A stretch of 64,000 nt of DNA from the IMG/VR virus record IMGVR_UViG_3300036406_001149; one strand, 5' to 3'. The position numbers were made by a program, and so were the translations under genes. The notes below the pieces were generated by a model. The model did no database searches. It was not told the DNA's origin and saw nothing but the letters and a program-made list of their open reading frames with translations. Shown here piece by piece: positions 915 to 6,900 of the stretch. Position 1 is the first letter of the stretch, and every line of letters begins with the position of its first letter. This stretch comes from a virus.

Positions 915-3900
915 ATGGCTAGTACTTTTAACCTTACTGCACAACTTAACCTAAGAGGTCCTGCTAATATTAGAGCTGTTGTAGCTAATATTAGAAGACA
1001 AATAGGTACTATTGATGCTAATGTTAATATTGTTGTAAATCCTGCTGCGGTACGTAATTCTACAGCACTTAATACGGCACTAGTAAGACTAAACACCACA
1101 TTACAAACTACTACTGTTAATGCTACCAGTGCTGCCAATGCCATTAATGCATTAGTAGCATCAATGACTTCTGCTTCTAGTCTTAGACCGCCACCAGCTT
1201 TAGTCAATATGCCAGGAACACTAGCTTCTATAGGAGACGCTGCTAGACCGATTGGAACAACTATAGAAACAGCAACTGGTGAAATTACTAATTTCGGTAG
1301 ACAAGCAGGATTAGCTGTTAGAAGATTCTCAGCTTTTGCTGCAACGACAGGTATTATTTATTCGTTTACTAATGCTATTAATAGTGGATTAAAAGCGTAT
1401 ATAGAATTTGATAAACAATTAACAAGATTATCACAGGTAACAGAAGAGAGTCGATCAGGACTTACGGGCCTTACCAATAATATTACTAGTTTGGCTACAT
1501 CTCTTGGCGTTAGTTCATCAGAGCTAGCTAATGTATCAGTCACGCTTGCTCAGGCTGGTTTAAGTGCACAGGATACATCCAAAGCTTTAAAAGCGTTAGC
1601 TCTTAGTGCTTTGGCCCCATCTTTCGATCAATTAAATGATACCGTAGAAGGTAGTATCGCATTGATGAGACAGTTCGGTATTAGCGCAGGGGATTTAGAA
1701 GGAGCACTAGGCTCCATAAACTCAGTTGCTGCTAAATTTGCCGTTGAAGCTTCTGACCTTATTACAGCTATTCAAAGAACCGGTGGTGTGTTCGCATCAG
1801 CTAGTCGCGGAGTTAGTGAAGGCACAGATGCTTTAAATGAATTCTTAGCAATTTTTACCAGTATTAGAGCTACTACTCGTGAAAGCGCAGAAACTATTGC
1901 AACAGGTTTAAGAACTATTTTTACTAGAATTCAAAGAGCAGAAACTATAGACGCTCTAAAAGAATTCGGAGTTGTACTTACAGACCTTGAAGGTAAGTTC
2001 GTAGGACCATTCGTAGCCGTACAAAGATTAGCAGAGGGCTTAGGAAGATTAGATCCAAGAGATTTAAAATTCTCACAGATAGTTGAAGAGCTTGGAGGTT
2101 TTAGACAAATAGGTAAAGTGTTACCACTTATTCAACAATTCGCCACTGCTCAAGAAGCATTAGCGGTTGCTCAAGCTGGACAAGGATCTTTGGCGACTGA
2201 CGCAGCTAAAGGACAATTAGCATTAGCAGTACAAATTCAAAAAGTGAGAGAAGAGTTTGCAGCACTAATACGAAGTATCGGAGAAACAGATAGTTTCCGT
2301 ACAATGATTACACTAGGTTTGGATTTAGCTAGTGCTTTAATAAAAGTTGCTGACGCAACCAAAGGAGTGCTACCATTAGTAGGTTTGATGGCCGCATTCA
2401 AAGGTATTAGTGGTATTACGCAATTTGCTACTGGATTTGCTGGAGGACTTAGAGGCACTCCAGCTACACAAACCAGAAGATTTGCTACTGGTGGTTATGT
2501 TCCCGGTTCCGGAAACAGCGACACTGTACCAGCAAGATTGACTCCAGGAGAATTTGTAATTCGTAAAAAAGCTGTAGAAGCTATTGGCGTTGGTAAATTA
2601 CAGGCTTTGAATAGAAATGCTGGCGGACCAATATCCATTCAGAGATCTAGTATTGGCAGAGGACCTGTCCAGAAATTTAGTGTAGGAGGAAGCCCTGAAA
2701 CACAAACAAATAATGAGTTAACTACTCATAGAACTCATATAGGTCCTAAAATAGCATTATCTCCAAAACAAGCAAAACTAGCAAGATCCTATGGATACAG
2801 CCAGTCTTACGCAGCGTTAGGAGCAGAAAGACAAATTGACTTTGCTCCGTATCTCCCAGCAGTTTGGAATGAACAATGGAGAAGAGGCGGATCAAATAAA
2901 GGAGTTGCTCTTTCTGAAATCCTTAATTATGTTAATCCAAGATCACCAGAACAACTATTTGGTAGAGGAGGTATTCCTTCGTTACTTTATAATAAATTAT
3001 CTAGAAGAAACCAATTACTGCCTTTAAAAAATGTTTTCTTATCCGGATTAAGAGCAGCTCCTTCACTTATTCAAAAAGATTCTCAACTAGATTTTATCTT
3101 GCCAAATTATATTAAACCATTTTTAGATTCATTAGATCTATGGTCACCATTAGCTGAAAAACAAACCTTAACTATTCCTAGAAAATTTTCAGGAACTGAT
3201 GTTTTTAAGACCTTGTTAGACAAAGGAGTTCTTAAAACAAAAGTAAGAACTACTACACCAGGTATTCGTAAATCTTTAGCTCAGGATTTAGGAAATACTT
3301 TTGCCAATGGTGGTTCTATAAGAGCATTCGCTGAAGCAGGAGCAGTGTCTGCTACAGGTGGCAAGCCAGCAACTGCCTCGGAAATACTCAGGGTATTAGG
3401 AGCACAAAAAGCTGCGGCTGCTGGTGGAATATCTTCAACAGATGTATATACTTTACTTAAAAAACAAAAATTAACACCAGAACAGGAAGCAAGTAAAAAA
3501 GCTATTTTTGCAGAATTTACTAAACAACAAAATAGATTATCTGGAGCACAAAAGGCTAAAACCACCAGAGCAGAATCCAAAGGACTAGTATTTGGCGCTG
3601 CTGGTATGATGGGATCCGCATTTGCTCCTATTAATAAGACTATTAATTCTAATTTATTAAAATCTCCGGTGAGTGTGAGGATTGTTAGTGGACTTATGAA
3701 TCCAGATACAGCAGCTTCTCTGGACCAGTCTTTTTCTTCCTCTGTTAACAAAACTGCCAAACAAGCTGCTAAAAAAGTAATGGTGGCTGATATTTTATCT
3801 AATCTTGGTCTTGGTAGAGAATTGAATTTGGATTTTGACAGAACATTAGCTTTTGGAGCAGATAAAGTGTTGGCTGATCCAAAAACTCCAAAGTTTGCTG

Positions 3901-6900
3901 AGTTTGGAGATAGAACTAAAGTAGCAGCCGCTCTTAAAGGAGCAAAGCTTAGTTTATTAGGTAGAGAATTAGTTGGCATGGTTTCTAAAAAACCTGAATT
4001 ACTTAGTAGTCTAAGACTAATTACAGCTCGTCCATCATCAACATTAGACCTTGTTCATCAGTGGTTATCTTCTCAAGGATTACCTATTCCATTATCTCAA
4101 TTCAAGGGATTGGGAGGTCCAGGAGTTTCTGGTTCTCAAATAGCTAAACTTAAAGCGGAATTACTTAGTCCAGGATCAGTATTTGTTGATGATGATGTTA
4201 GAAATGTGAAAGCGGCCAAAGCTAGATCAACAGAAGGAATTACGTCATATAGGTATGGTAATAGAAAAAGTATAAAAAATACTAATGCTGATGCTACAGC
4301 CCAAGGAGTTATCTTTGAAAGAATGATCGAACAATTAGGAGGACCATCAGCTCTAAAAGGCCAAGGTTTAGATTTTCCTAATGGACTTAAGGGAGCAGCT
4401 AAATATTTTAATATACCAGGAAACATCCCCACTGATGCAAAAAGAACAATTAGTGGTCCATCAACAGTAGAGGATAATATTGTTACTTATCTTAAAAATG
4501 TTAAAGGATATAATCTTGGAGGAGTAGTTCAAAAATTTGCTTCTGGAGGCTTATCAAAACCTTTAGACACACTAGAAAGATACTACACAGACGCTACTCC
4601 AATTAATCTTGGTTTGTCTAATAGCAAATCATTAAATAAAGAGGACAGAAAACAATTAGCTTCAGATGTTAGAAATTTACGTAAACTTCGCACAGAAGCA
4701 CCAGAGGAATTATATACTTCAATATCTCGTAATGCATTTGATAAATTTGCTATGGATACTGGATTAAATAAAAATCCAGATATTCCACAAGGAACCAAAT
4801 TTAATGCTAAACAAGCATATTATGCTCCAGAAGTAGCTAAAATTATTGGTAAAACTTTTAGTCTTCCGGGATTCATTTCTACAAGTAAAAACTACGCAGT
4901 TGCCAAATCATTCTTAGATAATGCTCCAAGAGCAAAAGATAATTGGGCAGCTATGCTTACTGTAAAAACAAAAAAGAATGCTCAAGGAGTAGATGTTGCC
5001 GAACAATTAAAAGATCGTAAAATTAATGTAACCAAACAAGATATTAATCCAAGAACAGGCAAAACCGAAACGTTCTTCATGAAACAACCCAATGAAGAAA
5101 ACGAATTCATGCTTTCTCCTCGTTCTAAATTTAGAGTAAATACAGCAAAATACGTAGATTTAATGGGGAGACATAATCTTTGGGCTAATGTTCAGCAGTA
5201 TGCTACTGGAGGATCCGTTCAAGACACTGTTCCTGCTTTATTAACTCCGGGTGAGTTTGTAATTAATAAAAAAGCTGCTAGTAGTTTAGGATCTAGTAGA
5301 TTACATACTCTTAATAGAGCAGATAAAATTAAAGGATTTAACAAAGGAGGTCCGGTAGGAACCGTACAGAATTTCGCTGCTGGAGGTGCCGTACAAAGAT
5401 TTTTCTTTGGTGGTGGTCCAAGAGTTCCAGCTAGACCGGGAGCACAAGCTTCTTTTGAGAATTTACGCATTCCGGACGGCGTGGTAACAGGTCTTGGTCA
5501 GATGATAGATGCCCTAGAAGAATTAGGAGTTAGGTCTTCGGACTCAGCCAATATCTTGCGTAGAGGAGGACAAATTAGTGTAGAAGCTGCTACAAGAGCA
5601 TATGAAGCAGATATTTTAAGATTAAGAGTTTCTGGCGCACCAATGAGAACTGTTATAGAAGCTGAAACAAGACTTGCTAATATCAGACAGCAAGCAGCGG
5701 CTCAAGTCAGAGCTCAAAGACAATTAGCTGGAGTTAATGGTGGTCAATTAGAAACAATAGATTATGATGCACAGCAAAACTTACAAGCTATGATTCAAAG
5801 ACGTCAAGCAAGTGGTCGTGATCTTGATGATACTTTTATGAGACGAGCAGAAAGCGTTTCATATGGAAGAGCAGCTCAAAGAGCTGGATTATCACCAACA
5901 CAAACAGCAGGATTAAGCGGTAATGATCTTAGACAATATATTAATACTGCTATGGGAGATCCAAGAACATTTGAACAAATGAATAGAGCTTTTGAAACTA
6001 GAAGAAGAGCTGAATTAACAAGACAACTAACAGCAGAAGGTCGTTTCGGAGGTGATAGAAATAGAATTTTAGAAGAAGCCAGAAGAATGGCTCAACAAGA
6101 AGCAAGGATTCGTCGAGACACACTTAACGAAACTAGAGGAGCATCTGGTCCGGGTCGTACTGGAATAGGTTCTCAAGCTATGATGACAGGAGCTTTTGGT
6201 ATTCAAATGTTTGGGGGCATATTAGCACAAGGTATAGACAGGAAAAGTAGTGCAGAATCAGCCGGTCTTGCAGCAGGTTTAGAAACAGCCACAACCGGAT
6301 TAGGCACAGGATTAATGCTATATAGTCAATTGGATGAAATGTCTAAAGGATTATCTAACGTTAATACAACATTAGGCAGATTCGGGTCGGGATTAACAAG
6401 AGTTGCAGCTCGATTAACTGCTCTTGGAGCAGCTGCTTTTACGATTGTCTCGACCATTAAAGATGTTGTTAACGCAATGAATCAATTTGATATTGATCTA
6501 CAGAAACAAAAGCTTGAATTTAGTATGAAGGGAGTTGAGCAAGAATTTGAGAGATTAAGAAAAGCTGCAAATAATATAGGATTTGATAGACTAAACAGTG
6601 CTCTAGAATCTGCTTCGAAAGCTTTCGCTTCAGCTCTAGACAGAGTAAGTAAACAATCCACTATTACTTTTACTAATCTATTAGACTACATATATACCTC
6701 TATGCCATATTTTGGCACAGGAGATACTGAAGGATTTGATAAAAGATCTGAGATTGAGAGACTTGGTGGTAAAAAAGCTTATTATGCTTCTCGCAGCGAC
6801 GAAAGATCACTAGCTGATGAATATAAAAAAATTATACCACAACTTGCACAAGAACAAGCGGCTCTTGGTAAAGCTTTGTCAGATTCTTTACTTGAAAGCT

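Follow-up and report, generated by a model that had tools for sequence, protein, structure and literature searches.

A predicted HAD-fold phosphatase domain carried as an optional in-frame cassette in giant phage tape measure proteins

To our knowledge, phage tape measure proteins are regarded as rulers and channel formers that carry at most cell-wall hydrolase motifs. The described HAD-superfamily phosphatases that resemble the domain discussed here most closely are the 3'-phosphatase of phage T4 polynucleotide kinase (PseT, or Pnkp), which is capless, and the class B and class C acid phosphatases, which are secreted, free-standing, oligomeric nucleotidases. In T4 PseT the catalytic residues are laid out as D165-x-D167, S211-G-R213, K258 and D277-D278. 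Here we analyze a stretch of 64,000 nucleotides (the window) from the IMG/VR virus record IMGVR_UViG_3300036406_001149, a 114.7-kb record of an uncultured phage with a G+C content of ~34% and an estimated completeness of 83%. We will focus on a HAD domain that lies within a giant tape measure protein of 5,797 amino acids (aa) encoded in the window. The sequence motifs, the predicted fold, the distribution of the domain among related proteins and the modules next to it will be discussed, and the possible functions of the domain will be weighed. Positions refer to the window, and residue numbers refer to the 5,797-aa open reading frame (ORF), unless model residues are given.

Judged by its N-terminus, the 5,797-aa ORF is a tape measure protein. 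The Pfam family PF10145 (PhageMin_Tail) matches at aa 190-393 with an E of 5.3e-22 and 79 bits against a curated cut-off of 33, and aa 1-895 match 13 PHROG tape measure families, including phrog_28, phrog_4211 and phrog_167, with the best stretches in aa 43-752. These matches agree with an earlier note on this DNA, made from the letters and the list of ORFs, which had taken the protein to be a tape measure and had placed a complete HAD-family phosphatase inside it at 3816-4260. That segment corresponds to aa 968-1115 on the plus strand and its translation is free of stop codons. The direct translation and the conservation described below confirm that the motifs follow in the order described, with the first Asp at 3831 and FVDDDVRN starting at 4182; KLKAELL through FVDDDVRN occupy 4146-4205. 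The limits given in the note fall inside the HAD domain and the hidden Markov model (HMM) envelope is slightly wider (Table 1). Two minus-strand ORFs that lie over the HAD region (3281-3979 and 4136-4432) are taken as spurious because the plus frame is kept in more than 80 proteins.

Homologues were collected with a full HMMER search in which aa 943-1135 were used as the query against 1.84 billion cluster representatives. The 82 proteins retrieved, 56 of them at E <= 1e-10, range with few exceptions from 2,000 to 7,900 aa in length. Conservation was counted in an alignment of 83 homologous segments whose identity to the window ranges from 29 to 97%. In motif I, D973 and D975 are each present in 81 of the 83 rows (the remaining two rows have gaps) and T977 is present in 80. 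Motif II has A1038 and R1039 in every row, with P1040 in 80 and T1037 in 71. The second Lys of KLK, K1080, is the invariant one (83/83), and motif IV has D1093 in all rows, D1092 in 82 and N1097 in 71. The catalytic positions are near-invariant across the 83 homologues while the remainder of the domain diverges.

A structure prediction, which the earlier note had proposed as a check, returned a Rossmannoid HAD fold. The AlphaFold model covers aa 943-1215 and was built from a 24-row alignment (A4) of viral contig sequences. The mean predicted local distance difference test (pLDDT) score is 83, and the block means are above 90 across most of the HAD part (87-97 over most of its length, ~73 at model residues 41-50 and 65 at the C-terminal end). 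The model shows the alternating strands and helices of a Rossmannoid fold, and every motif stands at the position that a HAD enzyme requires. Motif I is placed directly after model strand E28-30, T1037 of motif II closes strand E91-95, and D1092 and D1093 close strand E147-150 (strand 4). After motif I the model has short strand residues and a helical turn, where the squiggle and flap elements of a HAD fold may lie.

Structure searches with the model point to the same superfamily. Foldseek against the PDB gave 23 matches at E <= 0.001, and those listed are overwhelmingly HAD-superfamily proteins. When the Foldseek matches were aligned with VIA-align, 126 chains reached Z >= 8. The top match is the T4 Pnkp 3'-phosphatase (5uj0_B, Z 11.3, root-mean-square deviation 3.1, 126 residues aligned), followed by the class B acid phosphatase AphA (Z 10.5 over 154 residues), Pnkp1 (Z 10.3) and the class C acid phosphatases (Z 9.7); ordinary HAD enzymes reach only Z 8.4-9. 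The alignments with AphA begin at model residue 1, so they take in the region of the helix ahead of the HAD core. VIA-align was also run independently over 48,161 representative chains and found the same leading families, together with a plant vegetative storage protein (VSP) at Z 10.7 over 144 residues. In that scan HAD-superfamily proteins fill the first 39 rows, all of which have Z >= 8, and nearly all of the top 50. Over the two runs Pnkp1 lies at Z 10.0-10.3 and the class C acid phosphatases at Z 9.6-10.2, with 145-147 residues aligned. In a viral structure library two large uncharacterised virus proteins lead the list and are followed by many phage PNKP-phosphatase, nucleotidase and acid phosphatase models. 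The nearest named clusters in the ESM Atlas are viral HADs (HAD_SAK_1, T5 dNMPase, Acid_phosphat_B and DUF2608), all at 0.93, which we use as a lead only. VIA-align rows less than 1 Z unit apart were treated as tied. On the model, the fold is HAD and the nearest group consists of T4 Pnkp and the class B and C acid phosphatases, whose members are tied.

From these results aa 964-1124 form a compact HAD-superfamily domain with the full catalytic set D973, D975, T1037, R1039, K1080 and D1092/D1093. It is very probable that this is a genuine, catalytically intact HAD domain within a tape measure protein. The coordinates of the domain, its motifs and the features around it are collected in Table 1.

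Table 1. Features of the tape measure ORF and its HAD region (positions in the window)
Feature	Position	Residues	Strand	Basis and remarks
Giant tape measure protein ORF	915..18308	5,797 aa	+	ORF list and translation; hosts the HAD cassette and eight TPGEFV linkers
Helix ahead of the HAD core	3744..3809	aa 944-965	+	model helix H2-23; modeled as packing against the domain; aligns with the N-terminal region of AphA
HAD-fold phosphatase domain	3804..4286	aa 964-1124	+	HMM envelope, AlphaFold model; top Foldseek and VIA-align matches all HAD enzymes
Motif I, DFDRTL	3831..3848	aa 973-978	+	translation; D973 predicted nucleophile, D975 predicted acid/base
Motif II, LRLITARP	4011..4034		+	translation; T1037 at the end of strand 2
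Motif III Lys	4152..4154	K1080	+	on helix H131-140 ahead of strand 4
Motif IV, FVDDDVRN	4182..4205		+	translation; D1092 and D1093 predicted Mg2+ ligands; end of strand 4
MINI module	4296..4523	aa 1128-1203	+	~80 aa; constant partner of the HAD; G..(E/Q)...D(F/Y)P.G...P(T/S/V)(D/E)xK(R/V)T
ADP-ribosyltransferase-like domain	4566-5180	aa 1218-1422	+	PF03496 ADPrib_exo_Tox, E 4.1e-5, 23.5 bits against a cut-off of 23.4; right after MINI
TPGEFV linker copies	2541-17850	aa 543, 1444, 2663, 3708, 4241, 4863, 5353, 5618	+	part of DTVPAxLTPGEFV

The HAD family is found almost exclusively within giant tape measures of 2,000-7,900 aa. All full-length homologues have the N-terminal tape measure core in common and the HAD is always downstream of it, mostly 900-2,400 aa into the protein, with one copy that begins near aa 3,490. 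In distant giant tape measures the parts that can still be aligned with the window are the N-terminal core, the HAD together with the module that follows it, a long segment (aa 1425-3750) and the linker copies. Locus L029 can be aligned with the window on both flanks of the domain (aa 818-945 at 40% and aa 1122-1221 at 66% identity) and carries 27 residues in place of window aa 946-1121, the HAD block. Judged by these alignments, the HAD is an optional in-frame cassette of giant tape measures. The only direct repeats found around the cassette are short and at chance level. Because close relatives occur both with and without the cassette, they provide natural plus/minus controls. A search for free-standing homologues of 83-354 aa gave none; two short matches come from contigs of 1-3 kb and are probably fragments. 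In a scan of 185,579 prokaryote genomes none of the 103 pattern matches was a relative, and therefore these genomes offered no prophage or cellular copy and no clue to the host. Searches with tblastn and megablast against 50,697 phage records, a set that may lack those close to the window, gave no match.

The module that we call MINI follows the HAD directly, with a gap of ~3-34 residues, in 81 of 84 proteins, and two of the three exceptions are short fragments. Its invariant residues are D, G, K and T, the Asp being that of D(F/Y)P.G and the Lys that of P(T/S/V)(D/E)xK(R/V)T. The D...(D/E)xK spacing is typical of PD-(D/E)xK nucleases, and it is from this motif alone that we read MINI as nuclease-like. 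The part of the AlphaFold model that covers MINI has middling confidence (blocks of 54-85), a profile search of the PDB gave one chance match, and in the ESM Atlas the similarity was at most 0.85 with no named family. In L046 the order is permuted and MINI stands ahead of the HAD. In addition, 13 of 47 viral loci match the query by MINI only, without the HAD, and HAD-less MINI is found in L029 and L047-L059. In sequence terms MINI is a separate unit from the HAD. Among the 84 related giant proteins, only some ten have the ADP-ribosyltransferase-like domain that occupies aa 1218-1422 here.

Three further observations concern this region. One of the related giant tape measures, P0033 (7,122 aa), has the HAD twice, at aa 2290-2433 and at aa 3490-3642, and the ADP-ribosyltransferase-like domain twice, with MINI after the second HAD only. 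In seven translated HAD-less MINI loci the upstream region has an ISATKVRDAL-type motif (ISGTATRQAV in L029; in L048, for example, at aa ~60-110 of the printed stretch). This motif resembles the ISSTxxR of nucleotidyltransferases and may mark another enzyme cargo. Finally, a conserved segment precedes the cassette at 3555-3749 (aa ~880-945; GLVFGAAGMMG...VRIVSGLM). Because this segment is joined straight to MINI in the HAD-less L029, the HAD may have been inserted into a larger domain made up of the segment and MINI.

We predict that the HAD domain is an active Mg2+-dependent phosphomonoesterase. Following the established HAD mechanism, D973 would attack the phosphomonoester, and D975 would protonate the leaving group and then activate water. 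K1080, T1037 and R1039 would hold the phosphate, and D1092 and D1093 would hold Mg2+. As part of the tape measure, the domain would be built into the virion and packed in the tail, and at infection it would exit the tail with the tape measure, so that the host would receive it ready-made, ahead of all phage gene expression. Taken as a whole, the account of an active phosphatase that is delivered at infection and acts on nucleotides or nucleic-acid ends is in our judgment slightly better than evenly balanced. Within it, two substrate classes appear about equally probable, namely mononucleotides, as for AphA, the class C acid phosphatases and T5 Dmp, and nucleic-acid 3'-phosphate ends, as for T4 Pnkp, possibly with MINI taking part. 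The longer acid phosphatase alignments, a small cap-like insert of ~18-30 residues that is absent in T4 Pnkp, and a layout like that of T5 Dmp would favor mononucleotides. The top match to T4 Pnkp along with Pnkp1, and the nuclease-like neighbor MINI, would favor 3' ends. HAD phosphatases of this type cleave phosphomonoesters and cyclic oligonucleotides are diesters, so cyclic oligonucleotide signals are chemically unlikely substrates.

Several points weigh against this account of a delivered phosphatase. Searches of Pfam, NCBIfam, PHROGs and, by phmmer, the PDB with aa 896-1195 gave no match to the HAD domain. The A4 profile gave only sub-threshold matches among PDB sequences; the ten include six phosphatases or hydrolases of the HAD family, and the alignments shown lie at motif IV. 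The best structural neighbors of the model are less than 1 Z unit apart, so they would leave the substrate unconstrained. The remaining points concern delivery and partners. Tape measures are extended in the narrow tail tube, and a folded domain of ~18 kDa in several copies would not fit it, so that unfolded transit and refolding would be needed. Most of the ejected tape measure protein probably stays in the cell envelope, and delivery to the cytoplasm is an assumption. Apart from MINI, no pathway partner enzyme was seen in the genome. In the phage's own record, at its estimated 83% completeness, neither a PNK-type kinase (AAA_33) nor an Rnl2-type RNA ligase was found, and the search for an Rnl1-type ligase was uninformative, its control being silent.

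An hhalign comparison of A4 with T4 PseT gave a probability of 3% over 14 columns that cover motif I alone, and the comparison with T5 Dmp gave a probability of 0.9%; neither is significant. With the HAD HMM built here, T4 PseT scored 0.8 bits and T5 Dmp 2.8 bits. The T5 Dmp family PF26880 was matched neither by the window nor by any of 24 relatives, and the same set gave no match to PF03767 (Acid_phosphat_B) at E <= 5. Among the 24 relatives Pfam returned only two weak PF12710 (HAD) matches, at E 0.046. Because no sequence model in Pfam, NCBIfam, PHROGs or the PDB recognizes the domain, and because the profile comparisons with T4 PseT and T5 Dmp are non-significant, we regard it, in terms of sequence, as a separate HAD family outside the existing models. 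The likeness to the T4 polynucleotide kinase 3'-phosphatase that the earlier note had drawn is therefore upheld in part. The T4 enzyme is the top structural match, but it is tied with the class B and C acid phosphatases and has no significant sequence link to the domain.

This partial likeness bears on a narrower alternative, in line with what the earlier note had suggested, in which the domain would carry out end healing in the manner of T4 Pnkp. It would remove 3'- or 2',3'-cyclic phosphates from RNA or DNA that has been cut by anticodon or defense nucleases, and would do so pre-emptively from the time of injection. The ranking of the structural matches speaks for this, with T4 Pnkp in first place and then Pnkp1, which belongs to the Pnkp1/Rnl/Hen1 RNA repair complex, as do the many phage PNKP-phosphatase models in the viral structure library, the placement of R1039 at the position of T4 R213, and the adjoining module with its nuclease-like D...(D/E)xK motif. 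On the other side, sequence similarity to T4 PseT is not significant (3% by hhalign, less than 1 bit with the HMM), the Z lead over the acid phosphatases is less than 1 unit, and an extra 18 aa separate motif I from motif II in comparison with T4, which amounts to more cap than T4 Pnkp has. A T4-like heal-and-seal pathway would also be without visible partners, because the record, at its estimated completeness of 83%, shows no AAA_33 kinase and no Rnl2-type ligase. Taken together, we consider end healing of this kind unlikely.

Another alternative places the enzyme in the envelope. While the tape measure crosses the periplasm or membrane, the domain would dephosphorylate an envelope component or extracytoplasmic nucleotides and so aid the formation of the channel, in the manner of the class B acid phosphatases, which are periplasmic, and those of class C, which are lipoproteins. 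The class B and C enzymes fit the model nearly as closely as T4 Pnkp does, with longer aligned spans, and the enzyme domains so far documented in tape measures hydrolyze the cell wall and thus work outside the cytoplasm. We nevertheless think this alternative quite unlikely, as the neighboring modules suggest cytoplasmic substrates (the ADP-ribosyltransferase domain would need NAD+, and MINI has a nuclease-like motif) and there is no sequence link to the Pfam family Acid_phosphat_B. Very unlikely, finally, is that the domain has no role after ejection, either as a structural spacer that sets tail length or as an enzyme active only in the producing cell before assembly; the cassette does add ~150 residues to a length-determining protein whose relatives range from 2,000 to 7,900 aa, and a folded domain is not obviously compatible with the tail tube, but a spacer would not hold the nucleophile, the acid/base, the Lys and both metal-binding Asp residues invariant across 83 sequences down to 29% identity, and an enzyme of the producing cell would have no evident reason to be fused to a virion protein, no free-standing form having been found beyond the two short contig matches.

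The remainder of the tape measure and its surroundings give further context. Eight copies of a DTVPAxLTPGEFV linker split the protein into blocks, and the linker is found again in all related giant tape measures. A tail sheath was not found with PF04984. Most large neighboring ORFs, including the one upstream of the tape measure, have no PHROG match. A 2,526-aa ORF has virion, tail fiber and baseplate-like PHROG matches. Downstream of the tape measure, at 18326-29716, are four large ORFs (936, 453, 592 and 1,795 aa) with no PHROG match at E <= 0.001.

We found no published description of a HAD or other phosphatase within a tape measure. What is new is the HAD family and its architectural setting, not the kind of enzyme. 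More than 80 divergent giant tape measures retain a phosphatase domain with its catalytic residues intact, and its neighbors are a domain of ADP-ribosyltransferase type and a module with a nuclease-like motif. This suggests that the tail lumen serves some phages as a route by which preformed enzymes for cytoplasmic-type substrates are delivered. If the account of a delivered phosphatase is true, it would add a delivery route for factors of early host take-over or counter-defense, and it would provide a new HAD family whose substrate is accessible by direct assay. A broader proposal can also be made, which we consider rather unlikely. In this uncultured clade the giant tape measures would be polyproteins that inject several effectors, in which the HAD and MINI form a two-part unit that processes nucleic acids or nucleotides and works before phage expression. 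The unit would either match, in protein-delivered form, the pre-early A1/Dmp system by which T5 disposes of host DNA, or counteract host defense nucleases. In that case MINI would represent a minimal fold of a new type, either nuclease-like or substrate-binding.

The domain can be set beside four described systems. With T4 PseT (5uj0, 1ltq) and Pnkp1 (4xru, 4xrp) it has the HAD fold in common, and the T4 enzyme is its best structural match. The T4 enzyme also has the elements DxDxT, [ST]-x-R, K and DD in the same order and, like the window domain, is phage-encoded. The two differ in the segment between motifs I and II, which is 46 residues in T4 and 64 in the window domain, in the fused kinase that the window domain lacks, in the lack of significant sequence similarity, and in setting: the T4 enzyme is soluble and early, whereas the window domain is embedded in a virion tail protein.

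The class B (AphA) and class C (e(P4)-type) acid phosphatases and the plant VSP have the same fold (Z 9.6-10.7) and align over longer spans of 144-158 residues, which include the N-terminal helix and a small cap region. AphA has the same [ST]-G-R form of motif II. In contrast to these enzymes, the window domain gives no Pfam Acid_phosphat_B match and is internal to a 5,797-aa protein.

T5 Dmp, the pre-early deoxynucleoside-5'-monophosphatase (PF26880), is likewise a phage HAD, and it acts at the very start of infection. It has D22-x-D24 and a motif II that reads T-A-R, as in the window domain, and by our count motifs I and II are 64 residues apart in both proteins. The window domain, T4 PseT (SGR) and T5 Dmp (TAR) all place an Arg two positions beyond the Ser or Thr of motif II, and an ESM Atlas cluster in which 68% of the members belong to PF26880 is among the nearest to the HAD domain (0.93). 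The layout alone is common to the two proteins, as there is neither a PF26880 match nor significant profile similarity. They also differ in how they would reach the cell, since Dmp is made from the first DNA that enters and the window domain would come as protein.

In a survey of the polyvalent proteins of phages and conjugative elements, tape measures go unmentioned and the domains listed include no HAD phosphatase (Iyer et al. 2017, PMC5512222). These proteins and the tape-measure-related effectors with swappable functional domains of actinobacterial contractile injection systems (Nagakubo et al. 2026, PMC13277306) are the closest parallels to the architecture. In these, as in the giant tape measures, a long polypeptide strings together enzyme modules that are delivered with DNA or by a tail-like machine, and the modules vary between relatives. 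The latter effectors belong to contractile injection systems and not to phage tails, and they provide a conceptual precedent for the HAD cassette.

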